Below are positions 13,452-64,000 of a stretch of DNA of 64,000 nucleotides, piece after piece. The position numbers were made by a program, and so were the translations under genes. Origin of the DNA: Fimicolochytrium jonesii (taxonomy: Eukaryota). Under the pieces are notes generated by a model. That model saw only the letters and a program-made list of their open reading frames with translations, had not been told where the DNA came from and searched no databases. Position 1 is the first letter of the stretch; each line of letters opens with the position of its first letter. The stretch is taken from the NCBI RefSeq assembly GCF_025526975.1, contig NW_026515669.1:2046001-2110000 (forward strand), given 5' to 3'.

Positions 13452-13565
13452 GGGTGAGTTCATCATTGTCTCCGAGACAACTGTCTCCGCCATCTCCACT
13501 GCTCCTGACACACGCTCTCTCATAGAGCAAATCACGAGGCTGCCCCTATTCCGGGCTGTCTCCAT

Positions 13566-37289: not shown

Positions 37290-38865
37290 GTCTATTCGCC
37301 TTTATTGATTACCGGGCGAAGTCCTGGTCTAAGCGATTCCAGGTCTTCTCTCTGTGTAGGGAGGTGTAATCAACACTTGAAATCACTTGCATCGTCCCCG
37401 CGATTGTCCCGAGCAGACCATTGCAGAAGAGATCTTGCAGAGGTGGTAAGAGTGGGTCGGATTGAGTTCGGGCTATTCGTGTTCATATTTCTGATATAAG
37501 TGACAGCGTCACCTCCTTCGATCGGGAGCACTTTGTTTCCGCCGATACCGCAATCGAATGCGGAGTATTCATGGTTTCACAGGAGGTTAGATCGCCGGAT
37601 TTGAATCTCATCCGGTGCTCCATGATGCCCACGACTCCAGCCTCCTTTTTTTGTTGATAATGTGGGAGGCGATTTTGGAGTCCGTTCCGTTCTAAGCTTC
37701 CATACACTGCTCATTCGCGCAGCTATCGGCCTGCGCATTCATATGTTGACAGTCAAACACAATAAACGAAGCCCCCGCTCTTGACCATTGTCGCCAGCAA
37801 CCTGTTCGGGACGGGAACGCTATGGACGGGCGCACGGTCTCGTTCCATTGGGGCTGTTGACTCGCGTTGGCAGAGCCAAGGAACACGTCAGAGCTGTCAA
37901 CATTGCTGCCAAAACGGCCTGAGTTACGCCAACGCACATAGAGAACCCGACTGCAGAAATGTTGGAGATCCGAGGACACTTGCATCTGGTCATCCACATG
38001 TCAGAATATACTCTGGAGATACTGAAAACACTCGAAACCTGGCTTACCGCTATGAGGTTCCCACGTCGGACAGAAGGGTCCGAGGCAGACATCGCTCTGT
38101 CAAGGCCGACACATGGCACATGTCAGGAACCACAATTGCACGACAGCTCAAGGGGATCCGAAGCCTTGCTCGTACTCGGGGATTCCACCGTACCATTCCC
38201 ACATTGAAGCACTTCCTCCGTCCCGCTTCCCCAGGCTCTGCGGTGACTGCAACGAAGGGCACCACCCCACAGCCGAAGACTGGCTTGGGATCAGAGCGAG
38301 CGGGATCATTTCGCTTTTGATAAGTCTGGAGGTTCCGCCGGGGCAGGCTCCGGGTTTGGAGGCTAGAGACCGAATATGGCTCTAAAGGATAATCACACCA
38401 CACCCGACGAGATCTCATCATTCCACCCCGCGCCATTGCCGGCGGAGCCTGGCGGCCGAATCCACCGTCCACTTGCCGCTCGGCCAACCGCTTTTGATGT
38501 ATATCGGCCTATGTTTGTCGGAAGTGGTACTTTCACTTTCCAAAGTTGCATTGGGTCAACAGTGCGCTGTTGAATGGTTTTGGCCTTACAAAAAGGGTAT
38601 GCGAGGGTCATAGATGAAAGCAAAACCGGCAACGTCGCAAGCCTGCCCGACGAAAATAACTAATGGGGCCACCTTCGGCTCCCGTTTTCCTGCGTCGCAG
38701 GGCCGATGAGTGGGCGTGCCCGAGTTTCGGCGCCGAGGGCCTGGTCTGACATATTTGCCATGGTCAACTTACATTTCGAATGAGTGCACAGGGAAGGCGG
38801 GGCCCAAGCGGCGCTGCAGAGTCAGGTGTAGGGCCTACGAAGAGTCTCCAGATGGGACATCGGTC

Positions 38866-41761
38866 TCACCCGCGTTGGGCTTCCAACGCGTCCTTCACTG
38901 TATTAGAAGTCGTTCGCACTAGGTAGTCGCTCCCTACATTGTCATAATCGAGCGGCCAGACGATATCTCTCGGGATGCTCTTGCGTAGAACATCCCGTGC
39001 GTCGGCAGTGAAGATGACCCCATCTGCAGATGTTCCCCCGGGTTGCGATCGCTGCAAGGCCAGGAAAAGGCCCTCGGTGTTGGCTTCGAGCCGTACAAGC
39101 TTAGCGAAGCCAGGCAGCCCGTCGCTCTGCTCAATCCCCACCACTGCCCCAATGGGCGGGATGACGTAGCGAGGGGAAGAAGCGCCTTCTGTCCCTTTGT
39201 TGAAACCGAGAACAGCCCTCTTAAATGTGTCCGTCGCAAAGTCCACAGCTTTGCGTTTCCGCTCGATAGAGCCCGCGTCGTTGTACACGAGCTGCTGCAT
39301 TCTGATCCGTTCAGAGGAACGTCGTAATGTCAGCCAGCAGTCCTTCGATGTGCATCACATACATCACATACATCACATACCTGACGGTGTGCCGCATCGC
39401 ACGGCTAGCCGATTCTCTCAGGCGCTGATGGTCCAACCCGTCCGAAGATTCCACGAAAGTAGCGAAAGCATGTCGCAAAGCATTCGGCCCAACATGCGGA
39501 ATGCCCGAATGCTTCTCCACAAGACCGGAGATATACGCAGTCCATTGACTGGCATCATCGAATGCGTCCCCACTGCGCTTGCAGAATAGCAATCCATGAT
39601 CTTTACCGCACGTCGTAAGTTGGCGAACATCCGCACGCATGAGCCACAGAAGATATTTCAATAGAACTTCCTCATCCTTTGGCAGTTCTATTTTATCTTG
39701 CATGCCGTTCGATAATCTGTTTTTATAATCACTGAAGATGGGGCGTCGGTGTGCCTTCTTGTAAGTAATCAACTATTCAAACCTTCTGCAAAATTCACAT
39801 TCACAGCCACATTCACGTCTCACCTCATGACTGCAACATAACGCCCATGAGAGGTAGTTATATGGTTTTGCGATGACCCCCGACTCTCGGACTCGGGTAA
39901 GATGCAGCCCCAGAGCAGTCGGACTTCTTTCGACCTTGCAGGTGGCAACGCCGTGTATAACGACAACGCAACGAATGCCTGAGCTTCGGCAGCCAAAGCT
40001 TTAATAGGCTCATCCGAGGTCGCACCCCATAGTTCCAGCAGCGCCCGATATTGACGGTGAACGGCTTCGAGGACCTGGAAGAGCATATTGTCATCACATA
40101 CGCGCCAATATGCCAGACCCGCCAATACGCCAACGTTGACAAATGTTTCAACAATCTGGAAACGAACCTGTTCCCAGATGACAATGCCCCGAGGTTCAGA
40201 GTATTTCTCATCGTTCCTTTCCCTTTCCGCTAAGGTCTGTAAATTGTTACGAGCTCGCATCAACTTGCGGATCTTCAAGTTCGCTTCAGCTCCGCTACCG
40301 GATGCCTCTTCTGTTGTGCCGCGGTATCGCAACACGTCGAGGGCGCTACTCAGATGATTGCCTTTACTACCAGCGCTCAGACCTCTGACACGGCCGAGAT
40401 ATCCGTCTACATACTTTTCCTACCGCAATGAGACATTAGCGGTGAGTGCGACAACAGAGGATGTGGAAATGGCGTCAGAGGATCTCTCACCAAGAACAGG
40501 TCAACGTCTTCGAAATTCTCAAAGGATGGAGTTCGACAACGTCCCGACGCTTTCAGCCATCCTAGGAAACCGCAAATCCTTTCGCGCGATTTGGCGATCG
40601 TTTGTTCATTCCGAGGGTGAGCGTGGCCCCGCCTGAAATCGTGCGAGGCACTGAAAAATGCACGCAGATTGTGGAACTCCACGTGATTCAGCGGCGTCAT
40701 GTCGAAAGTCTGCAGTGTGTAGCATTTGAAACGGACCACGCTCTTGATGCCGCGGGATAAGTCGTCCCCATCCACGTCTGGCATAACGTCTCTCGGCCGT
40801 ATGGGTGGAGGAACCGATGGCGATCGACCAGAATCGTACGCGAGGGTAGGAAGGACCTCGTTTTGCGAGTTGACGCCGACGAAATCTCGCTGCTCATTGC
40901 TTGGAGTAGGTGGAAGGGGATTCCTATTCTCTGAAGGATTGCCGGGCGAGTCCGCTGCCCTCCGCCGCTCGGTCTCAGGGGTAGATGGCGGAGTGACATT
41001 TCGTAGCACCGCCCTTGACGTTGGAGTGTGGGGTACATCAACGTCAACCCGTTGATTTAGACTCGCATCACTGGCAGGTCTCGGCGAAGACACCTCATAT
41101 CTTTCCTCGGCTTCGTTGGATCTCTCATCGCCGCGACTCCGTGGATAGGCAGTGTGCGCCTCATCCATTTCGGCGTGATGAACTGATTGAGAAAAGGGAA
41201 AGTGAAGAAATAACATCAATTCTGAGTCAGTTTCGGTGCCACTTGAGCGACTCCGATTGATTTCGTATATTGCTATCGGATATCGAAGCTGCAAACTGGC
41301 CAGGGAGGGGATGGCATTTCCAACGCCGATTGGAATCGATGCAATTGTTACTCACCGGACGCCCGCGGCAAAGTCGCGCTATCGAGGGCCGTCAAAGTTT
41401 CTCCTTCCTGTTCTGTTGTATGCGTCCGCTGAGGAGGACCCTCCAGAAATCGATCGTCCGTATAGCCAATATCTCGAAGAAGCTTCCCTAGCGCAGCCTG
41501 CTGTACGAACGCCAGGTGGGAGGCCGTCGTACCGTAGGCCAACACCGCCTTGAACTCTCTCAGTTCCGCCCCAGTCAGAATCAGCACCGGGGCCTCAGAC
41601 TTCCTCCTGTTCAGCATGCCACGGATTCTTCCATACGCGACTCCTAGCGCGGAGCAGGCATCTTTGAGAAGCAAAAAGGTAGTGCCTGAACGTTCGTCTG
41701 TAGAAAGATCAATTAGTCGTTTCTCCAGGGTTCCCACGGCAAGGTGCGGATCTAATTCCAA
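38866..41761 (-). CDS. Tyrosine recombinase, spliced and apparently intact (may extend further upstream toward ~43 kb)
   Basis: Removing introns 41355-41183, 40490-40420, 40167-40075, 39823-39732 and 39380-39302 gives one open frame. It contains PPARSKE (R), SDYKN (K), PNALRHAFAT (xxLRH box), AMRHT (H) and MQQLVYND (catalytic Y). Confidence 0.85.
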
Positions 41762-44035
41762 CCTTTCAGTACAGGGACTGCAACATCGCCGACCCGCTTG
41801 CGCCAGATGAGCAGCGATGACGGGTACGCGGGCAGCTGTAAGCTCATCCTCGTCGGATTTCCACCTTCAATATACTAAGACACGGCGGCGAACGATGAAA
41901 AATCAGCTGCTCCCCCGGGGGGACGCGAGATGCCGCTCAATTTATGCTCGCTGGTGAGACGAGTCCTTGGCAACCAGACACGTGATGCGTAACCCTTCCA
42001 CCACAAACTTTCCACATGATTCACACCCTAATCGCAAACGGACTGAATGTCATATCGGAACCTCGACGTCAGCTCGAAAAGGCGCTGGCGTACAGCAAGT
42101 GAGCCCGAGGTCATCAGGGGGTCGAATTGAACATGCTGCTTGAATTCTGACGTGCCGCTGAGAACAAACTTTTTCAGCACAGCACCGAATGTTGTCCTCA
42201 CATATGAAGATCCTCGCACCTGTACGCCTACATCGAGAAGGGTCTCATCGTCAAAGCAGCACCTTCACACATCACTCTCGGCAGCGCTGAGGAAGAGACC
42301 CGGGATATCCAAACAGCGTACGGCGAAGTGGACCACTTGCTCTTGCAACCTGTAGCGTCAAGAAGCGTTCGTTCCTAGTTCGGTCACTTCCTCGGCGGCT
42401 GCATGCGTGGCTTGTCGTTCTTGTCAAAGTTCATCAAATATCCCTCCTGCTACCGTGGTGTTGGCATCAAAGAGCATGGGTGCGAATCGATGCTTCGAAC
42501 CATTTGCATGTGTCTCAATATATCGCATATACATTCCGTTTGCGACGGCGGCTGCAGTCTGCTAGGCGCAGTTATCGGCGGGAACAATTTGTGGTGGTGT
42601 TCGCCATGCGTTTTTCGAACTTCCTGCTGAATCCCGGTCCGCGATAGTGATATCAGCATTGTCTGTTCTGACGACAAAGAAAGGTGGCTCTAGTTGTGAG
42701 CAAAGGCGTACGTTGGAAACCCTATGCCTAACCATGCCCAGGATCGTTGATCGCTTCCCGATATAACAATCAAGCTGGCCGCAAGGTGCCGCCTCGGGTG
42801 TGGGTGCTGAATACGAAAACTGGTTAAACTGATCATCCCGAGCGGGTTGTTTGGAGCCAAAGTCCACTGAAGCTCACTTACACTGCGCTCCTTCCGGGCC
42901 CGTCGTAGCGTATCATCATAGTCCACTCTAACTTCGAGGCAGACATCAGTGTGTTGGTTAAAGATGGTAAGCTCCATGTCCGATCGCTGGCAACGCTTCA
43001 TCCTTGCAGAGGAAGCTAGCACTGTTATCGCGTCTCCCAAATAGCTCCCTGTGAGACAACACACGCGTCACAATGGATGTCCCGTTCCTAGATGCCTAGC
43101 CGCCGCACGCTGTGTGCATTGTCTAGAGTTTCAGCGACAGAGACGCCTAAAGGTCATCCTTCTGGCGCGACCTCGAAGGTTGTATGTTTTATTACGAATC
43201 GTTTATATAACGAATCGTTGACTCGGCCGAATCCCTGAACTTCGGGTTACAAGTTTACTACCGAGAGGCCACGTCCTCTTGCTGTTTGTTGCGTCGGTCC
43301 GTCAGGGTAATAGTGGGATGTCACTCGCAGCTGGACGGCGGAAGCCTTCCACCTAAGCGATCATTGAAACCCTCTCGACGTGACCGAACAGCCAGATCGG
43401 AGGTGCGATCGCGATTACAGTCGGGTGGTACTCAACTCAAGTGCACCTCCCAAATTCTAGCAAAGAGTACACACGTCGCGCGTGCCGTTCCATTCACCAC
43501 CGCCGTTGTAACAGCACAAATCGCTTTCCCTGCCTTTGCTCGCATATCGCTCCTTCTCACACCGAAAACTACAAAGCGACGCTAGAGCCCCCTTTCACCG
43601 CGCTGTTTCACTACTAGTTCGCTCACGTTATCAAGCGTCAAGCGTCAAGGTCAACTCTGGAGCCTTTCAGCCTTCTCCCATTTCTCAGCGAGCCGAGCCG
43701 CTATCGAGCTTAGAGATAGATATGAAGCCGAGGGTTCGAGTTTAATGAGATATAGCTTTCGGGTGGCCATCGTCGATGACGACTGCGTTTACGTCGACCT
43801 GTTACCATATTCGGTACTTCCCCGTTCGTTGACCCGTATCATTGTTGCCTGGGAATATGGCACTTGAAACAGAACCCAGAAGTTCTTCGCCAAGCACTTG
43901 CCCGGTATCTGGGAATTAAGTCCTGCTGGAGGATATAGTTTCCGATGCGAAAGAGCTTACACTTGCGATGGGCGTTGCGACTTTACGGCTTAGTGAGAAG
44001 CCCTGATCTTTCACAAGCGCGACCTCGGGATGGGA

Positions 44036-44310
44036 AGTTACCCGATTACCAGATAGCTGGTAACTTTGCTGGTAACTTCGGCACACGAAAGCATGAAGAT
44101 TGTAGGGTAGGGTGGAGCATCTGGTAATCTGGTACTTTCATTTCAAGATTTTGATCTGAAAATTTGAAAGAGAGGGAAACTGTTTTCATTTCTCACTGTC
44201 ACATCTGGAGAAGAGAAAGGTGTTCCGAAGATACCAGATATACCAGCTGGTCACCACGCAATCGATTTCCGATGGATGCCTTCGATTCTTTCGCGCGGGG
44301 AAGTTACCAG
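44036..44310. repeat. Cluster of TACCAG/CTGGTA motifs in both orientations (iteron-like)
   Basis: About eight copies, near 44047, 44057, 44069, 44121, 44129, 44232, 44241 and 44305. AAGTTACCCGATTACCAGAT (44036-44055) is nearly the reverse complement of ATCTGGTAATCTGGTACTT (44119-44137). Confidence 0.6.
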
Positions 44311-45293
44311 ACCAAGATACCCGGAAGTGGAAGATATGGTATTCTCATATGGTTTCGTTCGGCGAACTATTTCTTGATTGGATTTTTGCCCATGAATCAT
44401 CGGCCTTTACTGAGATCTTCCCATAGCAAGCCCAATAGTCTGAAGAATCTTCCCTTGGTCCCGACATCGCAGAGCTTTACTACGTCTCGGTCAGAGAACA
44501 GTCAAGCGATCCATCTTCATCTCGAATCGGCGTATCCCATCTTTCAAACGCACAGCGTCGACTGCAGGGGTTCACCAGACTGCTACAGCACAGTAGAAGT
44601 TTGCCATATATGTATGACAGAGCCCTTATCAGATGTATGCCCAGCTTTGGGGAACCATACTTTCAATCGTCACCGAGGAAGTGGGAGTCCGGCTTCAGAG
44701 AGCCTCGGACGTTTCGCTTAGGCGTTAGGTTTTACTCTGCTACCTGTAAACAGAGTGCCACATCTCAAATGAATTATTCACGCTTCCCCGTATTTTACCA
44801 TATGGCGGTTCCCTCTCTCACCGTTGGACGCAGAATCAACCGTGTGGTGGCTCCGCCGAGTGATGGGACCTGACGCCGAGCAAGCTTCAACGTTGGTGGA
44901 CATCTGCGATGATCCCTGACGCTGCTGAGGCACCGCACTGTTCCACCATCCAAGGTTGATGGGGGTTACCAATCAAGGCCACCTCCCGACTCGCACAACG
45001 ATGGGTAGTGCGGAAAACACAAATGCTATACATTGTATTGCGACAACTGGGTACATATGTGGGAACCCATCACAATCAAAACAGAAGGATAACGAAAGGT
45101 ACGATTACACAGAAGGGGGGTGAACGGTACTGATGGAAACATGGCTGACTTTGTACAAGGAAAACAATGAACACCAACTCTGGCCGACAACTGAACCAAA
45201 AAACGAAGTTGCAAATCAGGGTGTGGGGCGAGGGGGACAGCGTAAGGGTAACGGGGGATGATGCCAGGGTATCGGGGTCGAAATGTCCGGGTA

Positions 45294-46509
45294 TCAGGGG
45301 GGAGAGGCACGAGCGAGCTGACGATTGGGGGTGGGATGCCACTCGCACGAGCCCATAGGGTCGGGAATGGGACAACGACAAACCACCCAATTGTAGATAT
45401 AAGCCGTAAATCCGATCGTTTTGTAGTATTTGACGGGATGGGTGTCCGCAAAGTCATGGCCGTCACCGCCCCGTTTGTGGAGGTATTCGAGAAAGTGGTC
45501 GCAAATCCTTCCGGCCTTCTGCAGCACAATTCCATCATTTTCTCTGATGGACTTGATGTGGGCGAACAGAACCTCGCCCAGCTGCTTCTTGACCGTTAAA
45601 CGCGGGAGAGTATCGCCGGACTTCCTGCGCAATGCTGCGTCGATTGCAGCCTGCGGAGGGGGGATTACCCATTCCTTCTCCAAGACATCCTCAAGGAAGG
45701 CCACAAATTCGGAGACCGTGAAGCCTTCGAAGGTGTACTCCTCATCCTGCTCCTTTTTCTTCCCCTGATGAGCAAGATACTGTGTATCAGCCATGATTGA
45801 CTTGCAATCGGACTGCAACGAGTGCGTGTGCGTTCGGATGGCTCCGAGGTGGTCGTTGGTGGCCCGAGTCGAATCGGCTAGGCTTTTGACGGCGGTGACG
45901 ATCTTCCTCTCGCTGCCCTCGACATGCTTCTTATAACTTTCGAGCTGCTTCGCCGTCACCTCCGAAAAGCTTTCGAGGAGTCCTTGCGCGAACTGTTTCA
46001 AGGGCTCCAAGGAATCGTTCTGCTGGCGAAACGGAAAACCCCAGGAAAAGAGAAGACGATCGAATCAGAGAAGTTAAGGCTAGACACAATCTGTTTCCAC
46101 CCTCACTTACGGTGACACTATCGTTTGAGGCGAGCTTCGCCCGCTTCACCGCCTTGCTGTTACTGCGGGCTGAGGGAGCCTTGGAACTACCGATCGGATG
46201 TTCTGGAGTGCTGTTCTCCTTACCCCCATTGGGTAAGTGCAGGGTGTTGTCGGTAGGGGAGGCGTCGCCGGTTGTCGGAACAATGTTCAAGCTGACCGGG
46301 AGGAGGTGGGTGCTTGTCGGCGACGTGACGACGGCGACATCGTCGAGAGTGATGGTCGGGGAGGTTCTGTGAGTCATCGTGAATGCGACGCGTTTCTGAG
46401 ATTTAGATTTCGGAGATGTCAAGTCGCACAGGCGTGTCGTTTGTATCGCTTCAAAATCATCATTTGTACCTCTATTTATAGACGCGCCGGACATAGTGGC
46501 AACCTGCAT
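45294..46509 (-). CDS. Two-exon hypothetical protein: disordered N-terminus, coiled coil, Cys/His-containing C-terminus
   Basis: Intron GTAAGT...CAG at 46110-46020 joins ORF 45931-46509 in frame to ORF 45294-46010 (..NDSVT|NDSLEPLKQ..). Confidence 0.65.
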
Positions 46510-47520
46510 CGCCGTTTGGATGAGTCACAACACGCGTGCGTACTTTTGCGTCGGTTTCGGTCGGACATGATGTCCGAAAAATTCACACAAGCCACATCGA
46601 CTGGCTGGTAAGCCACCTACTCTGTGGCTAAGCCACTTCATGACGTTGCTAAGCCACTCCGAAGCGTCGCGGATCCGCCGGACAGGCTCTCTGGCAGCTG
46701 TAAGCTCGTACGGAATGTTGACCGCCTGTTAAATATGCAAACGGCCATAGGGTGAAAGACATGTTAAAGTCCTAACATGAAAGAAAGAGTAAGGCAAGAA
46801 GGGACAAACGTCGAGATCACGCTCATATTCGCACGAAACGGGTGCATACTTCTGGAGTGTTCAAGCTGTTCCCAGGCATTCTTCATGCTTGTCCTGTTGA
46901 GAAAGATAACTTTTACAACCCTGTGCGTCGTATAGTGATGTCCAGCAGCCCAAAAAGCGGCCGGCTGCCTACGGGGGGGGGGGGGGGTCTCCCGGACCCT
47001 CTTCGACAGGGGTTGCGCGCCGAGAAGGCGCCCCTTCCCAGAGAATGAAAGCCACCATCTCAGCCTCTCAACGGGCGGGCTCAAAGCAGGAATCCGTGCA
47101 GCCTACGGTTATCATGAGAAACAGTTGTGTCCGGTGGCAAAAATGGGCTTTCATTGCCTGACAAGTGGAAGTCGTTCTCCGCCGAAGGTGATGGTAACTT
47201 CACCTCATGTTGTTGCTTTGGTGGTGGTTTCGTTGTTTTTTTTTTGGTCTTGATGTTGATAACATGAACGTCCATGCTTTCCATGCTCTTGGTGATGTGG
47301 TTGTGGTGTCCTAGATAATATGTGATCATACCCGGACTCCATCCGCTGTATGGTTTGCTGCTGCAAGCGGTATTCGAGATTCACAGTCCAGCGGCCATAG
47401 GAGCGCTCTCCGGAGCTATCAGTCGATCTGCCGTCAATTCGGACGGACTCTCCGGGTGACTTCAAAGGAACCACCAACCGAGCATTGCCTCCCACGATGT
47501 TAGATACATTGATGTTCTTC

Positions 47521-47811
47521 TGTTATGTTGCGATTCAGTGCAACATACAGAACGTAACATCTGCTCAGGAATTCACATTCACGCACGAGGAGTGCAGATT
47601 TCTAATCTAGATTGGTGTTTTCTTTAGTTATTTTGTTATGTAGAAGTTGAGAACTAGAGGTCTATAGGGATTCCATAGATACCATGAGAGTCCTCACCAT
47701 AAGCGAGCCAAAGGTTTGGAAACCATCATAACAAAATAACATTTTGACCAGGAGAGGTTATCAACCCCAATTTACTTATTAACGGGTTGGATTTCAAGCA
47801 AACCGCTTGTT
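47521..47811 (+). repeat. Left copy of a ~290-bp inverted repeat; AT-rich, with internal TGTTATG/CATAACA motifs and a terminal palindrome
   Basis: Colinear with the reverse complement of 54956-55248; shared blocks include GAGGAGTGCAGA, AATCTAGATTGGTGTTTT, TCTATAGGGATTCCAT, GTCCTCACCATAAG and GGAAACCATCATAACAAAATAACAT. Confidence 0.95.
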
Positions 47812-47965
47812 ATGATTGTAAAACATAGCACAACAACAACCATAACAACATCGACAAACAACAACGTCAAAATCAGCATCAACATCAACAGCAACAGCAT
47901 CGTCACCGCCACGTCATCATTGTCATCATTGTCTTCATCACCACTGCATCATGTCGATGCTCCCG

Positions 47966-50900
47966 TTACTCCGTCCGCTTCAACGTCCAACCTAGAAGAA
48001 TCCGACCGGAGTTGTTGCAACTGCACCCTCCTTTGACTCGGTCCACTTTTTCTGGGACGTTCAGATTCATACCTTTGAGCTGCTTGGTGGTCTCCTTTGT
48101 AGATGGGCCGCGGAGCTTCTCGTCGTTATTCTCCCTATGCAGATGTTGTTCGAAGAGGTTGGCAACGCGGTGCGCGTGGATCTCTGCTTCAGCACTGGGC
48201 TCGAACGCCGAGTGGAACCAACTCGGAAATGGATTGTTCTCTGTCTTTTGCTCCTCAAGATTGGCGCTGACCTCCGCTGGTTCGGTGAGCTGTCGTCCTG
48301 TGGCGATGTGCTCCCGGTAGACTTCCATGAGCAGAAGGAGGAATTCGCCCGGCCACCGTTCCATCTTGGCACCAAGGTCAAAATCCACGAGCATTTCCTG
48401 GGGGCACTCCGGCCGCGGCGATTTCACAAACTTCACCTCAAAGAGGATAATCTTCAGACGTCGCCATAGCGCGTTCAAGTCAGTCCCCCCACCCGACATC
48501 TTCGGAATGTCATTGCACAGAAGTGTGGGTATAAACCGCGGGAGGAAAGACACGATTTTATTACTGTTACAATCCCGTGCGGATATGTGGTCGTTCCCAG
48601 AAAGGACCTTGATGAACGCACCGTTGGCTTTCTTCCCGGCCTCCAGTTCAGAGCAGAAGAGAGCTCTCTTGGTCGCGAGATCCACGAGATGTGGTGCTGG
48701 CCTTTGCGCGTCTGGCACTTCGTTGGTCAAGAAAGTAACCATCGGCTCCGCGAAAAGGAGGTGGGTGAAGACCATCTTGATGAACGACTTCAATTGAGAC
48801 TTCCCATTTCCTCCGCATCCGGTCCAAATCGTCGCGATCTGATGGGAGTTCTTTCCCTCTAGGCTCAAGGCCAGTGTCAGCAACAGGAATTTCCGAACCC
48901 CTTGGTTCGGCATGATCTGCTGGAAGAAACGAAGAATCTCAGCGCGAAGGACCGGGTCGGATCTGCCCGGTATGCTGTGGGGAAGCAAGTATGAAAGATA
49001 GTCCTCCTGGCGATGTTCCCGGAAACTTCCATCGCGCGAATCGAAGACGCCGTTCTGGAAACCGAGGAGGCAAGGGTTGCTATCAATCGGAACAGGAGGT
49101 TCGGTCGACTCTCGAAGCCGCTGTTCCAAATCGGCCATCACGTATTTCCTGCGGTTGCTGTTGCCGAGGTCCTCGACGATCATGTTCAACCATCGAATCT
49201 GCTTCCGGTCATTGTAGGAGTCGCGTAAAGAAGCGTACGTTCTGCTCACTTCTCTGGTCAAGAAGGCTCGCGGGGTTACTCCCTTGTTCCAGTACGAGCC
49301 TGTGAAACGATACCAGTTCTCGTCGATGAACGCGTACTTCCCTTTGATGGCCTCCTCGACATAGGCAGCAATGTCGTCGGTGCGGCCCATGGTCAAACTC
49401 TCGAAGCAGAGCTGGTCCAACCTTTCGTTGTCATGCGACCTCGGAAAGTCCGCCATGCGTCCAAAATCCCGGATATCTCCTTTACCATCATCGGTCGCGC
49501 AGTTCACGTTTATCACGTTGTTATTACCTTGGAAGAGAACGTTCGTCACGCTGCTCGGGACAGTCAACAATGGATGGCCGGGTGTGAAAAGGGTTCGGAG
49601 ACAGTGCAGGACGATTTTCCCAGTGGTGCTGCACTCGAGAAAGTTCTGAGGGTCTTCATGGTGCTTCTTGCACTTGATGCAGTAGAGGTCCCTCAACATG
49701 AGCCAAGCGCCCGATTCGTGGACTGCAGCTTGGTCTTCATCAAAGTCAAACTGATTTTGTGGATATTCTATTCGTAAACTGGCAAGCTCCTTGCCGATGA
49801 GATCGGCCCCGCTCCGTTTGTCCGCCTTCCACGCTAGTCCGCCATCGGTGGAACTTTTCAATACCCGACTGCGTAGAGCGTCCAAACTCTCGCATATTGG
49901 TTGTGGGATGGTATCGTATGTGATTCTTGAGCTCCGGGTGCCGCAGCCCTCGTCGTGACAGCGTATTTCGAGGGAGGTCCTATGGAGCAAGAAGTAGACG
50001 TGGTTCGCCTTGTGCTGACCTCGTTTGAAAGGACACGCCCGATCTCGAGTAGGAATGATAACCCCAACGTTTTCCTCCACCCTCTTCCCTTCCCCCTTCC
50101 GTTTGCCGGGCCCGGGGATGCGCCTGCTCTGGTCGATACATACGTTATTCCCGTCTGACAGGGAGAACTCCGTAGCTAGCCATTGCTTCAGTCCATCGTC
50201 TGTGACGTGGTCCCCGCTTGAGTTCGCCACGCTACCAGCCGCGTCAGCCAGCTCGGCTGTGTTCCGGAATTTCCCCGATGTCCGTGTGACGTCCGAGGTT
50301 CCCGTCGTCCGCTTTGTCGCCAGGCCAAGTGCGGCTTTCGCAGCGGGGCAGAGGGGTGTTACGCTGGGAACGGGTTCCGGGATGATACTGTAGTCGTCCA
50401 GATCTTCCCTGCAAATGCGCCGCCTGACGAATGTTGCGCTGTCCACGGGTTCGTAGGCGTAACGAAAAGTTCCTTTACCGAAGCGCATCTCGTATTTCTC
50501 CACGTCCCCGAGGTCCAGGCAATCCCCTTTGTGACATCCGAGGAGTCGCAGCCCCTGTCCGTTATAAACCGAGGTGTCGAGCCATTCCTTCTCCATCCCT
50601 GCTTTCAGACAGCCCTTCTCCAGCAGCCGCTTGCGCAAACGTTCACAAAAGCTTCTCGCGATGTCCTTGGTCACAGTGATGTCCGGACAGTTTACGTGAA
50701 TCTTTTGCATGCATCCCTGCGAGATAAGTAGACAAGTCCCGGCAAAGCCTACCCCATAGGAGGCAATGACTTCCGCTCTGATTCCCTGCACCACCTGCCG
50801 ATTACTTTGCAGGACCTCTTCGTCCGTTCCCACTTCGGAAACCTGAACATCCCAATCGAAGAACAGTCGGAACAGTCCATCCTGTGGTACGCGCTCGCAC

Positions 50901-53260: not shown

Positions 53261-53710
53261 ATGAGTCGAGGTGCGTTCGTAGAGGATTTTGTTTTCTTTG
53301 TACATGTGTCAAAACAGACACGCATCTTTACACGTGGAAGCAATATGAGCGACACAACCAACTTCGACTCCAGGAGGAACCCTCAGCAGGCGCAAGTGGA
53401 GTATTGCAGCTCTTTGCTTGAAGCTCTGGCGCTGGATGGACGGCAATACGGGGACGCCGAAGTCTTCTCCTTTGTGGTCGAATGCTATGTGCGACTATTA
53501 ACGCTGTTTGCAACAAGGATGGCGAACTGTGATATCACTGTCGATCTTCATTACATGGTGAATCGGTCCGAACTCCATATACCGGGTCCCGATGCAGACG
53601 CCATCGCCGATACGTTGAGATGTTGTGTCGCTAACAGCTATCCTGCAGCGAGATTGCACGTCAGGAAGTTTGCATCACACGTCGTGTTCGGTGTCGGCCG
53701 TGCTGTATAA
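53261..53710 (+). CDS. Hypothetical protein (~120-150 aa)
   Basis: Clean ORF inside the IR-bounded module. No family recognised. Confidence 0.45.
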   Translation: MSRGAFVEDFVFFVHVSKQTRIFTRGSNMSDTTNFDSRRNPQQAQVEYCSSLLEALALDGRQYGDAEVFSFVVECYVRLLTLFATRMANCDITVDLHYMVNRSELHIPGPDADAIADTLRCCVANSYPAARLHVRKFASHVVFGVGRAV

Positions 53711-54001: not shown

Positions 54002-54295
54002 TCATGTTCTCGAGCGGCATGGTTGTGATTTATCTGCCGGAGTTGAATCTGACGCTGGGAAGTAAGATGTTCGCACAGACAGACCAGCGGTAGAGTTCCC
54101 GACGTCATCTTTCCTAATCCTTTCTATCCGGATGGGCATCTTTCCTGCATACTTGCCATCCCCAGCGAGGAGCATTGCGGTTGAGCCATTGATCTTGAGC
54201 ATCTGAGCGAGGGCTCGCAAGCTAGCCGCTTCGAACCTTTTCTCAAGGCCGTAGAGATCATAGGTGGCGATGTAGTCGTACTGTGAGGCCGGCAT
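54002..54295 (-). CDS. Small NUMOD1/IENR1-like helix-turn-helix protein (paralog of 52493-52690)
   Basis: RFEAASLRALAQMLKINGSTAMLL..PIRIERI shares the pattern EAxSLRxLxxxLxxxxxT..IER. Confidence 0.55.
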   Translation of the reverse strand: MPASQYDYIATYDLYGLEKRFEAASLRALAQMLKINGSTAMLLAGDGKYAGKMPIRIERIRKDDVGNSTAGLSVRTSYFPASDSTPADKSQPCRSRT

Positions 54296-54955
54296 GTACG
54301 ATGGATTGTTTGTGTTGTATAGAACCAGTCCGCAGATTTAATACCCCAATTTCTGACGCACTTTGCTCCGGAGTCGCCGTGCGTCACAACCGACGCCGCA
54401 AGCCCTGACAATGACAATCAATTTGGCAGGGCGTCACCTCCCGTCGATGGGGAGCGTCGAGCTATCATTTACCACTAACGTCCTGCTGAACACATCTTTA
54501 TGCCGGGTTTGTGCATGGCGGCTGAGCGATATAAGATATACATGACCGTCAGAATGCATCTGAGGGCATGGATGTTGGGGTCGCCGACTTTGACTGCCCA
54601 TCGTCGTGGTATCAAAACAGTGACAGGTCTACTGCCGGCTTTGGTGACTAACCTGACGCACGACTATTAGAGGAAACGCAAGGATGTACAGCCAGGGTGC
54701 CAGGGCAATGAGACATGCATGATTTCGGCTGTACCAACCCCGCACTACAAGTCGAGACTTTTTTATCCATTCACAGGGGATCAAAGGAGGTCTCGTCCTT
54801 GCAAGAATGGCTGTCGAGTTGCACGCCCGAGGACGATAAACGTGGAAGCAAATGGACGGCATGATGGCACGATATGTTGAAGTTGAGGTTGAAGTTGACG
54901 TTGACCTTGATGTTATGTTGATGTTGAGATGATGTTATGATAGAAAATGGTTCGC

Positions 54956-55248
54956 AACATGCGGTTCGCTGGAAATCCAACCCCCTCATAAGTAAATGGG
55001 ACCTGACGCGCTCTCCTGCTCAAAGATGTTATTTTGTTATGATGGTTTCCTAACCTTTGGTCCACTTATGGTGAGGACATTGATGGTATCCATGGAATCC
55101 CTATAGATCTCTAGTTCTCAAATTCTCCATAACAAAATAACACACAAAAACACCAATCTAGATTTGAATTCTGCACTCCTCATGCGTGAATGTGAGTTCC
55201 TGGGCAGATGTTATGTTGTGTTATGTTGAGATTCAGCGCAACATAACA
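54956..55248 (-). repeat. Right copy of the ~290-bp inverted repeat
   Basis: The reverse complement aligns to 47521-47811. It ends in the palindrome TGTTATGTTG-AGATTCAGCG-CAACATAACA (55219-55248). Confidence 0.95.
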
Positions 55249-56760
55249 AAACAGTATTTCCCCTTGGTGCAAGGATGAGGGATAGAACATTGACGATACG
55301 TTTTTTCAACAAGACCCCGCGGAGTACGAGGCGTTAACAACTCGTGAGCCCGTTGTCTGTCGGGATTCTGACAAATGGCGCTTCTTGTTCAGGGCCCTCG
55401 CCCCACATCATTCACACGGTCACATGTTTCAACTGGCCCGTCTGGTCCGTGTTTGTTAACCAACGTTTACCTGATCTTGACCGCGAGGTGGTAACTTATA
55501 CGGAGCGAAGCTGCCGCAGATGTACCAACAGCAACATGCGGGAATACGATATCGAAACGTCGCACTCTTCCGCCAGGGTCTAGGCAGCCGAGACCTTTAC
55601 CTGGTACTAAGAGGGGCAAGATGGAAACAATCGTGAGCGGTGCCGAGAGGATCAACTCATTCCGGAACGATACCCATCTCCATTCACGCGGGCTAGCTTG
55701 GGGAACACTGCCACCGCCGAAATAAATATTTCATATAAGTCTATATTGCTGATGGTGGGTGGAACATTGGCAACGGAGTGCCGAGGGAAGGGATGTGGGA
55801 GTGATTTTATGGGGCGATAACTGCACGTAGTCCTCTGGACATCCCACTGCCCGAGCGGGAATCATCATATTCTGTTGCTGCATGGCGCATGGCGGCTAGG
55901 CGAAGACCTCAATACAAAGGGCACAGGAAGATATCTACCAACGACCGACCGGAACTTGCATACCATTCGCGCAACTCCACATGCCTGTTCGTTTCCCGAA
56001 CAGCGGGAGGCGATGGGAAGCGAGAGGAACCAAGGGACAACCACATCCTGACGCCCTCTCTGCCTTACTCTTCGTCGTCAACCTCGATTCCCGTCTTCTA
56101 GCCGCTGAAAAGATGCCCCCTCACCCCGTAGAAAGTCTCATCTCTCCACAGCTCACGGTTGTCCACAGCAGCCCACCCCTCCAACCAATAAACGAGTTTC
56201 GGTGAAAATCTCCCATTTCATGAATACCTCGCCCTCTTGTGCGGTTCCGATAGAAACCCCAGGCTTTATTTTCACTAGCCACTGAATATCCACGTCCCCT
56301 ACCATCCTGTAGTCGGTAATTTCCATGTCTCTACCCGAATCGCAAATCGAAATTTGGTCGATGAAATATTCATCTCCGTGTTCCGAGTCGTACACGCGGG
56401 TCAGTGGGGATATATGTGGCGGCGAGGTTGACATGTGTTTGACATGTTTCGGGTTTTGACAGGGCACTGACAGCGACGGGCTGTCAAGGCTTGCTGCCCA
56501 GATGAATGCTGAGGTGAGCCATGGTATGGACGGCGCCATCCCTAACAACTCCATATCACCTTGATCCTAGGTCCGCGCATTGACTACCTCTGTCATCCCC
56601 CTAGTGAAAATTTCACCTGTAGCGGGACATCATCAATGTATTTACGCCTTCTTCCCGCTTGGATTTCATGTCATGAAGTTGAACAGGGATATAACGTAAG
56701 ATTTTGTTTATGAAAGAGAAACCCGGGTGAAGTATCCAGTATCCAGCAGGCAACGGTACA

Positions 56761-57387
56761 ATGTACTGGCAGTATCTCGGAATATGTGTACTATTTATCT
56801 TGGCGGTACAGGCATTGCAGGTTATGCCTCGCGCAATGCTCGTGACGATGCACAATAGTTGGCCTACCGGCAGTCAGGGACATTCCATGGCTCATTCCAT
56901 GGACGGGGTGAAACCTCTTGTACGAGTGACTGCAGGATTGAACAATGACCTCAACGCAGTGTGGAAACACATGAATGGGAAACGAGTTTTCCCCATCTTC
57001 CGCCGCCTGCTCCGTGGGCCCAGCGCTAGATCAGGAAAAGGAGGCTACATATACATGTTCCGAAACTTGAATCATGGAGGAGAACCCGATGACCAAGCGT
57101 GTTGGAAAATTGGCTGCACGGCAGCCAGAGTCGGGGTGCGAAAGCGCCTGCGTCAATGGGCAAAAAGTTGCGGCCACTCTCCCAAACTGATTGGTGAATG
57201 GAGAGTCACGAGATATAGCTTCTGTGAGAATCTCATTCATGCCGAGCTCAAAGCGCAAGGCAAGTGGTTGGGAAAAGTCCGCTGCGGTTGCAAGACTTCC
57301 ATGCATTGTGAGTGGTTCCGTGGGTCGCTCCATGAGATGCAGGACGTAATCTCGTTCTGGGTCGACTACGTCAATCGGTTTTACTGA
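56761..57387 (+). CDS. GIY-YIG superfamily protein, T5orf172/MUG113 type
   Basis: GGYIYMF..WKIGCT..RKRLRQWAKSC..CENLIHAELK..C.C..HCEWF. The real start may be downstream of 56761. Confidence 0.85.
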   Translation: MYWQYLGICVLFILAVQALQVMPRAMLVTMHNSWPTGSQGHSMAHSMDGVKPLVRVTAGLNNDLNAVWKHMNGKRVFPIFRRLLRGPSARSGKGGYIYMFRNLNHGGEPDDQACWKIGCTAARVGVRKRLRQWAKSCGHSPKLIGEWRVTRYSFCENLIHAELKAQGKWLGKVRCGCKTSMHCEWFRGSLHEMQDVISFWVDYVNRFY

Positions 57388-58100: not shown

Positions 58101-59301
58101 ATGACCGGAAACAGGTTCGCAGCACTCGCCGAAGATGACGAATCTGTATCTGCGGTAGCCGCCGCAGATGCAGCACCTCCCCGCAGTCGGAAGCCTCGGC
58201 GGAGAATCGCCTCGCCTCCCCGCAACGTACGAGAGCCACCAATTTTCCCTGAAGAGGAGCCGTTCGACGATGATGCGGGACCTAGCCAGCACTATATGGT
58301 GTATAGCAGCACAACGATAGATCCGAGCGTCACGAAGGGCATGTACATGGAGTGGCGCTGGCCCCGCCGCTGCGAGGAGAACCCGACGGACCTCACCAAC
58401 CCGTATTATATCGCCATGATCAAGTGCGGCTGGTCCGCGTGGTCCGCGGCGAAGAAGTTCACAAGGAAGCAGAGTTCGCTGGACCGGGCTCCCGAGTGGT
58501 GCTTCTCGCCACGTTTCGGTCGGAGTCGCACCGTCCTCGATCGGCCGGTAGCATCAGTGGGAGGCTACATGCTAGAGGCCGGAACCAAGCTATTCATTGC
58601 CGGGGAGCACGAGGACTACTACGACGATGACTTTTGCATCTACAACGACGTCACCGTGGTCCGGCCCAACGGCGAGATTCGCATATACGGCTACCCGACG
58701 GACGTGTTCCCGCCTACCGATGGACACTCGGCCACTGTGGTTGGCGACAAGATTTGGATCATCGGGTCCGTGGGTTATATGTGGACGCGCGGAAAGGAAG
58801 CGCAGGTCTGCATCCTTGACCTCGCCACCATGCGCATGTCCCGGCACACTACAACTGGCGACGACCCGGGCTGGTTGGCGGGCCACGTCGTGACTCGGGT
58901 TTTCGAGGACGCGATCGAGGTGGAAGTTGGACAGGAGCCGTGCCCTGGAACTACGGCCCGGTCGGGCAAATGGACGCTGTATACCACCGATTTCAGGTGG
59001 GAGAGGAACACTGATGCGAACGTCGTTCCCGAGAGGACGTCGATGGACGAGGCCAGCTGTCGCGGTCTGACCGCTGTCCTAGATTTCTGGAAGAATCGTG
59101 GCGAGCTGTGCGTGTACGTGGGCGACTGCATTCGGTCGCGTCGACGTCCTGGAATGGTGGAAGAACAGTGGGCTGACTTGCAAATGGGAGGCGGATCCCC
59201 GTTGGCTCAAACGGACTTGTGCCAGCAACCCTAATAAAGCCGCGGTGAAGAAGTGGTGGACCGAAAACCAACTGAACCTCGAGCTTCGTTTTGGAAGGTA
59301 G
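58101..59301 (+). CDS. Kelch-like beta protein with C-terminal ankyrin-like repeats (frameshift near 59110)
   Basis: LFIAGEHEDYYDDDFCIYNDV..YGYP..FPPTDGHSATVVGDKIWIIG, then MDEASCRGLTAVLDFWKN, and in another frame GRVDVLEWWKNSGL. Confidence 0.7.
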
Positions 59302-59723: not shown

Positions 59724-60737
59724 TCAGATGGACTTCAGAATCCTCTCGCTGCAGAGTAGCTCGTACAACTTATCTTCCGCTTCCAAGTGCACGTCTAAAA
59801 GTGCATTTGCTATGTCCGATAAGCCCCGCCGAACACCAAACAGCAAGGCCAAGGAAACTTCTGCCACAAAACGAAGCATGTTTTGCCTTGTCCTCTCCCT
59901 CACGGGACTCCCTACATGAAAGCTGTGACTGTACAGATCCACCCACACCTGCCTGCCCACTAAGGACATGTCATCCGCTCCAAAGGGCATGTCGGAAACC
60001 GGGTCGTTCATGATACCGATGTATGTGCAGGAGGACAGCCTTCGCTCTATGTTTGCCGCTTTGTCCCGGGCGGCCACGCGGGGGCCCGCAATCTGGACGC
60101 AGTGCACAGGGTTCACCAGCATGCTCGCTGCGCAGAGAGCTTGTGCAGCCCCTAAACTGTAACCGGCGAAAATGACGCTGGTTCCATTCTTCCTTCGTTT
60201 CCGTCGCAACGCTTTCGCCACCTCGTCACGCAAACAATCCATGAGCGTCCTGCCGTTCGTGTTTTCCATAGCTTCGTTCAGCATTCCTTGGTGAGCCAAC
60301 GATAAGCCATGGTCTCCGCAGCGTTTGCTGTGTACCGCACGACATATGTCGTACAGGTTAGCGAGGCAACGATCTGAGCGTCTCGTGGGCCAAAGCGCGG
60401 CGGTATCCCATAAGGACCTCAACAGGAGACCGGGGAGACCTTCTAGGATCGTCGGTCGAAAGCAAACCCATAAGGCCCCGGTGGCCGTATTTTCTGCGAT
60501 CCTGACGAAGGTGCGATTGCCGTGCTGATCTCCATAGCAGGCCACCAAACGATACGTGTCCTCCTTATTTCCGAAAGGTTGCACGTACTGTATCTCCGCT
60601 TCTTCGCTCTCCGGTGTCGGTTCGATAGGGCTGGTCAGAAACAATACCAGTTGAGCCGCATCTCGTATGGAAAAGGACGAATGTTGCTCCAGGAGACCGT
60701 TCCGTCGTTCAGTGTCCTTCGCACGTCTTTTGCCCAT
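59724..60737 (-). CDS. Class-3 lipase-like alpha/beta hydrolase
   Basis: WVCFRPT lid region, AHQGM, nucleophile elbow FAGYSLGAA, AGPRV and NDPVSDMP. Confidence 0.85.
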   Translation of the reverse strand: MGKRRAKDTERRNGLLEQHSSFSIRDAAQLVLFLTSPIEPTPESEEAEIQYVQPFGNKEDTYRLVACYGDQHGNRTFVRIAENTATGALWVCFRPTILEGLPGLLLRSLWDTAALWPTRRSDRCLANLYDICRAVHSKRCGDHGLSLAHQGMLNEAMENTNGRTLMDCLRDEVAKALRRKRRKNGTSVIFAGYSLGAAQALCAASMLVNPVHCVQIAGPRVAARDKAANIERRLSSCTYIGIMNDPVSDMPFGADDMSLVGRQVWVDLYSHSFHVGSPVRERTRQNMLRFVAEVSLALLFGVRRGLSDIANALLDVHLEAEDKLYELLCSERILKSI

Positions 60738-61113: not shown

Positions 61114-61845
61114 GTGACTTGGAGCACAGCAATGGGACGGACTATTACGATCCTGACCTGGAACATAGACGCAAGGATCGAAAACAGGGCAGAAAGGCTT
61201 GCCGCTGTCGGCGAGACTGTACGGAAACTGGACCCGGATATACTCTGTTTTCAAGAGGTCTTATTGGCCACCTATGGAGTCTTACAGCGTCTACTTGCTG
61301 CGGGCTGTTATGTCGATTCGGGATTTGCGCGCAGCGGCAGCGGCTTGCAAACGGTACTCTTCGCTCGCGACAAGATAGCCGCCGATTTCGAGACCGTCCC
61401 TCTCGCGAGCCGTATGGGCCGGACATGTGTTTTAGCTCGATGTCGAAAATTGAATCTGACGGTCGCCAGCTGCCATATGGAGTCTTTCAAGCACAATGTC
61501 GGACGCCGGTCGGAACAGACACTCCAGATCCATAGGGCTTTACTACCCGAAAACGCCGTCGTGTTGAGCGGCGACATGAACTTCATCCTTCCTCAAGAGG
61601 GTTTCCCCTCACCGTGGCTGGACGTTGGGCCGAGCGAGTACACGTACGACTCGCTGTCGAACACAAGCATACGAGACGGGTTCCGGTCGCGATTGGATCG
61701 CATATACGTTAAATGCGTGGGTAACATCGACTGCCGTTTAGTGGGGACGGAGCCTGTCGATGGCGTGTTCCCGAGCGATCATTTCGGAATCTACGCGGAA
61801 CTTACGCTCACATCTCAATCTGAAGAACCACCACCAGGGGGTTGA
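61114..61845 (+). CDS. Endonuclease/exonuclease/phosphatase (EEP) protein, TDP2-like
   Basis: ILTWNID, DILCFQEV, SRMGR, CHMES, LSGDMNF, YTYD..N, SRLDRI and PSDHFGI; the MGR, HxES and TYD..N..RxDR pattern is TDP2-like. Confidence 0.85.
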   Translation: MTWSTAMGRTITILTWNIDARIENRAERLAAVGETVRKLDPDILCFQEVLLATYGVLQRLLAAGCYVDSGFARSGSGLQTVLFARDKIAADFETVPLASRMGRTCVLARCRKLNLTVASCHMESFKHNVGRRSEQTLQIHRALLPENAVVLSGDMNFILPQEGFPSPWLDVGPSEYTYDSLSNTSIRDGFRSRLDRIYVKCVGNIDCRLVGTEPVDGVFPSDHFGIYAELTLTSQSEEPPPGG

Positions 61846-62810: not shown

Positions 62811-63398
62811 CTACAAGGCAAGGTTGACTACATTTGTACCCCGATCCAAGATGCTGTGAGCGCTTCTGGGTTTCAAGTGCAAACGGCATGGGCAGCTCCA
62901 ATCACAAGGAGTCTCCCCATCCATGGCACAGTTGCCCATCAGCCAGTGGCATACCCGGTCATCCGAATCGCCCGCGTAATAAAACACCGAGGTGGCTTCC
63001 GGTGTCATGCACACCTCCCACCACGTCTCCTGGGGAACTCCCTCGTCCAACAACGTCACATCCGTGGTTGTCTCCACAATTAGCCCACAGTCATCCCGGA
63101 TGAGATATGTTTTCATCGACAACATTTTCTTGTCTGTGATGGGTATCGCAACTTTGAAGGCTTGTTGAGATCGTGTAGACGTTAAGGGCGACCTACTATC
63201 GGACGTAGTGATCGAGAAGTTGATATCCTTGACTCGGGCACGTCTTGTGAGGTGGTGACTGACAACAGCAGATGCCTTCTTGAAAAGCTCGCGACTGATA
63301 TCGGTTCTTCCTTGTATCAGGAGGAACTGGGGAAGGTCGTCCCACGATAGACGGTCAAAATACTTGTTCGAGATCTCTTGGGGAAAGGAGGTGGGCAT
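62811..63398 (-). CDS. Hypothetical protein, possible degenerate N-terminal F-box-like motif
   Basis: MPTSFPQEISNKYFDRLSWDDL resembles LPxEI..I..L. The remainder is unrecognised. Confidence 0.45.
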   Translation of the reverse strand: MPTSFPQEISNKYFDRLSWDDLPQFLLIQGRTDISRELFKKASAVVSHHLTRRARVKDINFSITTSDSRSPLTSTRSQQAFKVAIPITDKKMLSMKTYLIRDDCGLIVETTTDVTLLDEGVPQETWWEVCMTPEATSVFYYAGDSDDRVCHWLMGNCAMDGETPCDWSCPCRLHLKPRSAHSILDRGTNVVNLAL

Positions 63399-64000
63399 TG
63401 TGGGTATCGTGAGGAGTGTGAAGTTTGCGGCTGTTCAAGATTGTGGGCAACCGAAGGGTGAAGGCCGACGTTGGGTTGGTCCCGGGAGAATGTTTGTGTA
63501 TGCAGCCAGCCCCAGGATGGTGGAACCAGAGACTGGTATATATATATGTACCTGCACCGTAGATTTGTCTTTCGGCCGTACCATGTCGCAGGACGGGGCT
63601 TGAGATCTCGGTTGCTCATGCTCACTTTATTGGCGTGACAGGAGATACGTCACTACCATGTGGACAAGCAAGGGTGCTCCCCGAAAGTTTTCTTGACGAG
63701 ACTTGGCATAGGACGGTTTGGTTATTCGCCGATAGCAGAAAGGGGATGGGGAATGAAGATAATGATAGTGACGGGGAGTGTAAACGGCAATTGGAAAGGG
63801 AAGGGGGGGGGGGGGTTCTGCTACGCGTCCCAAGATGATCACGAAACGCGTCCATAACAGGAGACTACGCTAAAGGGTGTAGCTCGCGGCACATTGCGGA
63901 CGATACACGCGTCAACAAGACACATTACTTTCTCCAAGCATCCAACCCGGTTGCACGCCCATTTCCCTGCGACTGCATGTTCGAAACAACGATCATCATT

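Follow-up and report, generated by a model that had tools for sequence, protein, structure and literature searches.

We analysed a 64-kb stretch of the genome of Fimicolochytrium jonesii, a chytrid of the family Powellomycetaceae (contig NW_026515669.1, positions 2,046,001 to 2,110,000), and we call this whole stretch the window. Its right part, from 37290 to 64000 (26.7 kb), is the region studied here and contains a spliced tyrosine recombinase (YR) gene and a primase-helicase gene, whose products are 99-100% identical to annotated F. jonesii proteins. Accession numbers showed that a YR and two primase-helicases are co-located in F. jonesii and also in Geranomyces, a genus of the same family. 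The reading that we favour, at about even chances, is that the region is part of a YR island without a capsid, adapted to its host and of Polinton-like virus (PLV) or giant-virus descent, and that the window likely holds the left part of this island. We infer that the YR, the primase-helicase and the accompanying cargo genes form one unit. The island has likely lost its capsid genes, and these would also be absent past 64 kb. The original prediction, made from the letters of the window, had described a PLV-derived or satellite-like integrative element. Mobility and viral descent gained support from the multi-copy YR, the ranking of fold matches and the co-location in two genera; a bounded, self-replicating and capsid-less unit did not.

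The tyrosine recombinase gene and its family

The YR gene (38866..41847, minus strand) was modelled with seven exons (41847-41763, 41697-41356, 41182-40491, 40419-40168, 40074-39824, 39731-39381 and 39301-38866) and encodes a protein of 802 aa with no internal stop and a full catalytic set. Its six introns are all of the GT-AG type and measure 65-173 nt. The protein consists, in this order, of a small N-terminal domain, a low-complexity linker, a core-binding domain, a catalytic domain and a C-terminal beta domain. In the public annotation (P0014), exons 1 and 2 are missing and intron 4 is kept in. Full-length alignments of the window YR gave 55% identity to one of the other F. jonesii copies and 47% to a copy from Geranomyces. 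Among 72 aligned homologues, the catalytic columns R, K, R, H and Y were near-invariant, being conserved in 71, 72, 71, 70 and 69 of them, respectively. The gene is intact and spliced, as had been predicted. The first His of the HxxR motif is usually Asn in this family (49/72), and this is also the case in the window YR. Two Borealophlyctis annotations contain insertions exactly at the positions of introns 5 and 6 of the window gene, which suggests that these two introns are old and shared.

The YR profile was compared with PDB sequences, and the top match was XerD (E 4e-6). For the fold search, we used a model of the homologue P0028 (pLDDT 78) and not of the window YR itself. This model matched Cre and Xer in the PDB. 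When it was compared with viral proteins, ranks 1 to 8 were all occupied by proteins of eukaryotic viruses, a virophage protein came at rank 15, and named phage integrases appeared from rank 13 on. These eight best viral matches are either integrases or proteins with no name, and among their sources are Pyramimonas orientalis virus (E 2e-10), Tetraselmis virus 1, Hokovirus, Harvfovirus and AaV. The modelled fold therefore supports giant-virus and virophage YRs as the nearest relatives of this recombinase, and supports a viral descent.

At 50% identity, the YR family comprises 314 clusters and extends well outside the chytrid clade. Pfam models matched some of the 72 members, with Phage_integrase in 15, a chromodomain in four and a Ski/Sno winged-helix domain in four. 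None of the 72 matched DUF3435 at an E value of 0.05 or better, none matched DUF3504, and the full-length chytrid members had no Pfam match. Chromodomains are a trait of integrases that target chromatin. Most of the family escapes Pfam, and many genomes probably contain members that have no annotation. A large branch of it (P0043-P0176), with best matches of up to about 1000 aa, has an N-terminus of Ski/Sno type, to which a chromodomain is added in some members; the five representatives that we looked up derive from ENA, Logan and NCBI contigs. This branch may be an undescribed family of eukaryotic YR elements.

Three YR copies were found in F. jonesii, on three contigs, and three in Borealophlyctis, while a Geranomyces cluster has seven members on seven contigs across assemblies. 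Several homologues lie on contigs of 2-13 kb. A FastTree phylogeny was built after a short row had been removed from the 72, which left 71. One F. jonesii copy grouped with Borealophlyctis, a member of another order, apart from the window copy (supports of 89 and 96), and the window YR was sister to another F. jonesii copy and not to the Geranomyces copy. Judged from these sequences, the number of copies and their placement in the tree are as in gene families that move.

The primase-helicase is a domain chimera by sequence comparison

The primase-helicase gene (47966..51211, minus strand) is an uninterrupted open reading frame (ORF) of 1081 aa from the first ATG, with an annotated start at 51115. 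An archaeo-eukaryotic primase (AEP) domain is followed by two Cys/His-rich segments, a D5_N domain and a superfamily 3 (SF3) helicase. Pfam detected D5_N (E 8e-10) and, below its cut-off, AEP_C962R (E 0.003), and the family profile had the C962R protein of African swine fever virus as its closest solved relative (E 4e-36), confirming the intact primase-helicase of the original prediction. The helicase also matched the P4-family primase model TIGR01613 (E 4e-29, below that model's cut-off). It carries the only Walker A motif found in a real ORF of the region, a second regular-expression match falling within a stop-rich frame.

The homologue search returned 13 proteins, that is, the window protein itself, nine relatives (29-73% identity) and three distant P4-type primases. 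Four of the nine relatives could be assigned, all to Powellomycetaceae-type chytrids. The two halves of the protein do not have the same closest relative. The primase domain is 65% identical to that of the neighbouring F. jonesii paralogue (accession ...295), but the helicase only 22%. Conversely, the helicase is 68-76% identical to that of a different lineage, to which the primase shows 31% identity. Separate trees of the two domains, each with 9 of 10 rows, agreed with such a swap, with supports of 100/100 on the relevant branches. The window primase-helicase is, at the level of sequence, a domain chimera.

The full-length homologues P0002, P0019, P0004 and P0009 are located on contigs of 5.1-5.7 kb. 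This narrow range may fit small repeat-bounded units, or merely short assemblies.

Co-location of the recombinase and the primase-helicases

In F. jonesii, the YR (accession ...285), the window primase-helicase (...286) and the second primase-helicase (...295) are on one 2.155-Mb contig. Since the second primase-helicase is not in the window, the accession order places it, by inference, shortly past 64 kb. Eight annotated genes lie between the two primase-helicases, of which at least three are identified genes inside the window. In G. variabilis, one 317-kb contig carries the locus tags 4293 (YR), 4308 and 4311 (two helicase types). No annotated gene separates the YR from the first helicase in F. 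jonesii, versus 14 in Geranomyces. A small helix-turn-helix (HTH)-like ORF of the window, ORF 2, is 66% identical over 76 aa to a stretch annotated as fused to the end of the Geranomyces primase-helicase P0022.

In G. michiganensis, the YR and a helicase have consecutive locus tags; these genes are on separate 2-kb contigs and were not counted as linkage. Pattern scans of viral, metagenome and genome contigs gave no confirmed related locus, these being weak scans with short patterns that introns can defeat.

Inverted repeat and candidate sites

An inverted repeat of 380 bp brackets a 7.7-kb block, with the primase-helicase and both HTH-like ORFs inside and the YR outside. Its left arm (47518..47896, plus strand) has 38% GC and internal palindromes, and its right arm (54875..55251, minus strand) has 40% GC and self-inverted ends. 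The arms are 79% identical over 386 columns, with a core at 88%, and a 14-mer within them occurs four times when 0.02 occurrences are expected. We found no target-site duplication of 5 nt or more at the ends of the repeat. Because of the self-inverted ends and of this lack of a target duplication, the arms could be either the terminal repeats of a nested replicon or two copies of a miniature inverted-repeat transposable element (MITE).

Outside this block, an 11-nt motif is clustered in both orientations at 44035..44311, where 7 of the window's 19 matches at two mismatches or fewer are found. For a 10-mer version of the motif there are 10 matches (2.3 expected), five of them in the cluster. 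This cluster is a candidate protein-binding or origin site. At 46609..46657 (plus strand), three direct 8-nt repeats spaced by 20-21 nt form a putative iteron-like array. The origin-like arrays of the original prediction are thus real in that the repeat clusters exceed chance, and their role as origins is a candidate one. The 44-kb cluster also resembled the mis-annotated N-terminus of P0022, with an E value of only 0.11, and this likeness was not counted.

Cargo genes and gene content

We scanned 239 of the 268 stop-to-stop frames of at least 55 aa in the region with Pfam, the other 29, inside the primase gene, being dropped. No capsid, A32 packaging ATPase, protein-primed DNA polymerase B (pPolB), protease, reverse transcriptase or housekeeping family was matched in these 239 frames, in agreement with the predicted lack of visible capsid and housekeeping genes. 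As to the A32 ATPase, there is also no Walker A in the ORFs of the region besides that of the helicase.

Several cargo genes could be identified to the right of the inverted repeat. A T5orf172 (GIY-YIG) nuclease is encoded at 56761..57387 (plus strand; Pfam E 4e-15), a class-3 lipase at 59724..60737 (minus strand; Lipase_3 E 3e-8) and a TDP2-like endonuclease/exonuclease/phosphatase (EEP) phosphodiesterase at 61132..61845 (plus strand; Exo_endo_phos E 4e-14; best PDB match TDP2, E 1e-11). All three had been named beforehand and were recovered as such. The first part of the T5orf172 ORF (56761-56850) is hydrophobic and signal- or membrane-like, which is odd for a nuclease, and the real start is possibly downstream. 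Four lipase homologues were found, one of them a further copy in F. jonesii and one in Geranomyces, and the named hosts are all these chytrids. The adducts that TDP2 removes are 5'-phosphotyrosyl ones and those that YRs form are 3', so the TDP2-like gene is not to be taken as the partner of the YR. The predicted kelch-repeat gene is present at 58101..59301 (plus strand; Kelch E 1e-7, below the Pfam cut-off). After about 59110 its repeats continue in another frame, owing to a frameshift or to an unrecognised intron. These later repeats, which lie across the frameshift and have no Pfam match, are what had been labelled ankyrin, a label that we presume from the look of the motif.

The two small HTH-like ORFs (ORF 1, 52493..52774; ORF 2, 54002..54337; both on the minus strand) share 34% identity over 58 aa (E 8e-5) and are thus relatives. 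Only one of them gave HTH matches, which were weak, and neither matched a NUMOD1 model in the library scans. Three ORFs have no recognised family (ORFans), namely a spliced one of 375 aa with one 88-nt GT-AG intron (45294..46509, minus strand), one of 149 aa between the HTH-like ORFs (53261..53710, plus strand) and one of 195 aa (62811..63398, minus strand). The latter has no Pfam match, and its start presumably is F-box-like. ESM Atlas had no usable match for the 375-aa and 149-aa proteins, and PHROGs and NCBIfam added nothing for the ORFans. Finally, a frame of 291 codons with five in-frame stops (41999..42873, minus strand) and no family match is a probable decayed gene, its status as a gene coming from the long frame. 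It lies in the 6.1 kb that separate the YR from the primase. In total, about 47% of the region was modelled as coding.

The inverted repeat, the decayed frame between the YR and the primase, the additional primase-helicase past the window and the undefined ends of the element had all been overlooked beforehand.

The left flank

The left half of the window contains host genes with EGF and fibronectin domains, followed by transposon debris up to 37290. GC is about 52%, host-like, on both sides of the start of the region, and composition therefore gives no element boundary. The debris is a nest that includes a broken Mutator-like element (MULE), a small inverted-repeat element and a DDE fragment. 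A telomere-type hexamer array with a 43-bp tail (37145..37290, plus strand), probably outside the element, comes directly after the broken MULE transposase ORF (35297-37149); the array proper spans 37145-37273 and contains the MULE stop codon. The 43-bp tail is found again 3.6 kb upstream, at 33630-33672, where the small inverted-repeat element (33669-33847) follows it. The array and its tail probably mark where a member of a host repeat family ends; a chromosome break that was healed may be an alternative. Insertion into telomere repeats, as in nimaviruses, was considered for this array and set aside, as the array and tail recur in the flank and resemble a neighbouring repeat. A Helitron-type hairpin at this place had no support (z 0.2-0.3), and an Rfam search of 31-64 kb gave no match.

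Further to the left, two large host ORFs (15481-26901, minus strand, and 11-5480, plus strand) encode EGF_CA, cEGF, fibronectin type II and type III domains, a set that is animal-like and extracellular, yet found in a chytrid. Two G-rich 21-bp tandem arrays (8229-8498 and 12725-12930), mutually inverted and about 4.3 kb apart, are located within opposing ORFs, and a second inverted pair (10826-10983 / 13530-13664) and a DDE_3 transposase fragment (11379-11915) are associated with them. Degenerate tandem repeats of 130 bp and 57 bp with GA microsatellites occupy 32491-33211, and a piece at 32360-32404 is present in inverted orientation at 10320-10369.

Comparison with known elements

The comparisons below follow the available portions of the cited papers. 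PLVs are defined by a major capsid protein (MCP), a minor capsid protein (mCP) and an ATPase, and often carry a YR, an AEP-SF3 replicase, a GIY-YIG nuclease and a class-3 lipase (PMC4642659), the last four of which the region shares. Other shared features are inverted repeats of about 300 bp beside the primase-helicase and sub-genic swaps between primases and helicases (PMC11296320), and integrated copies are known in a chytrid, Spizellomyces, and in oomycetes (PMC4642659, PMC7805220, PMC11296320). Since the combination of YR, primase-helicase, GIY-YIG nuclease and lipase is already described for PLVs (PMC4642659, PMC11296320) and a PLV is integrated in a chytrid (PMC7805220), the claim of a new class of element was too strong. 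Chytrid PLVs are also known from 10.64898/2026.06.19.733378, which reports A32 ATPases in many chytrid genomes, and Powellomyces data yielded assemblies of six MELD viruses, whose replicases vary (PMC8502044).

The region has an integrase (YR or RVE being accepted for PLVs) and a replication gene. It differs from PLVs in having no MCP, mCP or A32 match by Pfam in 26.7 kb, two primase-helicases, six introns in the YR and one in an ORFan, and coding sequence that is neither compact nor intron-free. Moreover, the inverted repeat, the sole long one on this side, bounds the 7.7-kb primase block and not a whole element of 15-30 kb. The element acts, judged from its genes, like the module by which a PLV replicates and integrates, yet with no virion module found and no compact coding it cannot be filed as a PLV. 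Typical PLVs measure 15-30 kb according to a large survey (PMC10120064), in which fungi were excluded and genes were assumed to be intron-free. Coral polintoviruses are reported to seldom carry YRs (PMC11131425). The "mobile helicases" at entomopoxvirus termini (PMC11296320) resemble the inverted-repeat block in having a D5-like helicase between repeats and T5orf172 just outside, whereas the block described here is on a fungal chromosome, keeps its primase domain and adjoins a spliced YR. The Mycodnaviridae (PMC13533422), giant viruses that are endogenous in zoosporic fungi, share the host group, a D5-like primase-helicase and, on some contigs, a PLV-like integrase, but the window is without MCP, PolB and other core genes, has a low gene density and carries an intron-rich YR. 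In that study, an F. jonesii MCP is the sole viral gene on a host-like contig. From the core set of nucleocytoplasmic large DNA viruses (MCP, PolB, A32, VLTF3 and RNA polymerase), nothing was found in the 26.7 kb, where the D5-like gene is the only one of this viral kind. Endogenous nimaviruses (PMC10871703) are likewise virus-derived, with a multi-exon YR and giant-transposon behaviour, some of them inserting in telomere repeats, but are whole crustacean viruses of 280-400 kb; the likeness is one of description.

The region was also set beside other mobile elements. The Maverick/Polinton hallmark of pPolB with an RVE integrase is absent from the window, where the integrase is a YR, and the reverse transcriptase and RNase H that accompany the YR of DIRS/Ngaro elements have no counterpart, with no reverse transcriptase match in the 239 frames. 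Starships have an intron-bearing YR near an edge, large cargo and host-like composition, and their "captain" is by definition a DUF3435 protein. The region resembles them in all three respects, but DUF3435 is absent from the 72 members, the YR points to the presumed edge, the host is a chytrid and a viral replicase is aboard. Cryptons are small elements with a YR of a Crypton clade as their only gene, and the Crypton-type model DUF3504 matched none of the 72 members. P4 and phage-inducible chromosomal island (PICI) satellites resemble the region in combining an integrase and a primase-helicase without capsid, and they depend on a helper virus that packages them; the element described here is, in contrast, eukaryotic and spliced. 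In the literature searched, which lies outside most subscription papers and Repbase, we found no published description of this element or of the YR family.

Proposed mechanism and alternative explanations

According to general YR chemistry, the recombinase would excise the island and reinsert it through a circle, and excision as a circle has been argued for PLVs (PMC4642659). The primase-helicases would open and prime the DNA of the island, or its circle, at the repeat clusters for host polymerases. The 7.7-kb inverted-repeat block may be a nested second replicon that rides in the island and may exchange domains with the sister primase-helicase. A bolder proposal, which we regard as tentative and rather doubtful, is that such islands form an undescribed class of capsid-less, self-priming integrative eukaryotic elements, a fungal counterpart of the bacterial integrative satellites, with an intron-rich YR as hallmark and a nested invading replicon trading domains.

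A number of observations weigh against the island that we favour. No element end, target-site duplication or empty site was found, and the gene cluster runs past 64 kb. The lack of capsid genes is a Pfam result for the window, and in Geranomyces the YR and the first helicase are separated by 14 genes that are unseen. The YR copies are only about 50-55% identical and therefore give no sign of recent transposition or of a burst. The stop-riddled 291-codon frame and the kelch frameshift indicate decay, the arms of the inverted repeat are only 79% identical with self-inverted, MITE-like ends, and the Geranomyces counterpart of the window primase-helicase is annotated at 641 aa, with the primase domain absent. 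On the other two F. jonesii YR contigs, the homologue search (594-1890 aa only) found no full-length primase-helicase; the pairing with the YR is therefore not obligatory, and the YR and the replicon may be separate things.

A reading that deserves attention, though we think it improbable, is that an endogenous virus, Polinton-like or of MELD type, is present, that the region is its arm for replication and integration, and that its capsid and packaging genes lie past 64 kb or are too divergent to be seen. The genes listed for PLVs include YR, AEP-SF3, GIY-YIG and class-3 lipase (PMC4642659), a YR and a primase-helicase near inverted repeats make up the PLV "end module", and PLV capsids can escape profile searches, HHpred having initially missed them (PMC11296320). 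The viral records of Spizellomyces (PMC7805220), of chytrid A32 ATPases (10.64898/2026.06.19.733378) and of Powellomyces (PMC8502044) point in the same direction, as do the continuation of the cluster beyond the window and the 14 unseen genes that separate the YR from the first helicase in Geranomyces. However, 26.7 kb is about the length of a whole PLV, yet no capsid or ATPase match was obtained, and the space between the two primase-helicases is limited to eight annotated genes, of which at least three are identified ones. Six YR introns, about 47% coding sequence and host-like GC do not fit an intact PLV either, such viruses being treated as intron-free (PMC10120064).

It is less likely still that there is no single element but a nest, in which a stand-alone YR transposon with a Crypton-like lifestyle, an inverted-repeat primase-helicase replicon and stray cargo came together in a repeat-rich region. 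The left flank is already such a nest, the inverted repeat encloses the primase block and leaves the YR out, the 6.1-kb gap between them holds a decayed frame, other YR copies were found with no primase-helicase nearby, and repeat-flanked "mobile helicases" beside T5orf172 genes have been described (PMC11296320). This is countered by the second genus, where a single contig carries all three genes with the numerical order unchanged and where an HTH homologue follows a primase. An independent double pile-up is unlikely, though one ancestral nest could have been inherited by both genera. The least probable explanation, which we would retain only with strong reservations, is an ancient viral insertion that was fixed and partly domesticated at one orthologous Powellomycetaceae locus and is immobile now. 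Both genera belong to one family, and the conserved order, host-like GC, YR introns and deeply diverged copies would agree with it. It is at odds with a YR that is multi-copy on separate contigs and sister to an F. jonesii copy and not to the Geranomyces copy, with the repeat-like occurrence of several homologues on contigs of 2-13 kb, and with a YR-to-first-helicase spacing of 0 versus 14 annotated genes.

Implications

If the region is a host-adapted, capsid-less YR island, it would be an intermediate between an integrating virus and a giant cargo transposon. A virus-type recombinase would have gained introns and spread as several copies, while still linked to viral replicases without a virion. 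Chytrids would then have a cargo-carrying element that parallels Starships and has a different origin. It would also become testable, in culturable fungi, whether PLV "end modules" can live alone and whether giant viruses of these hosts mobilise such islands.

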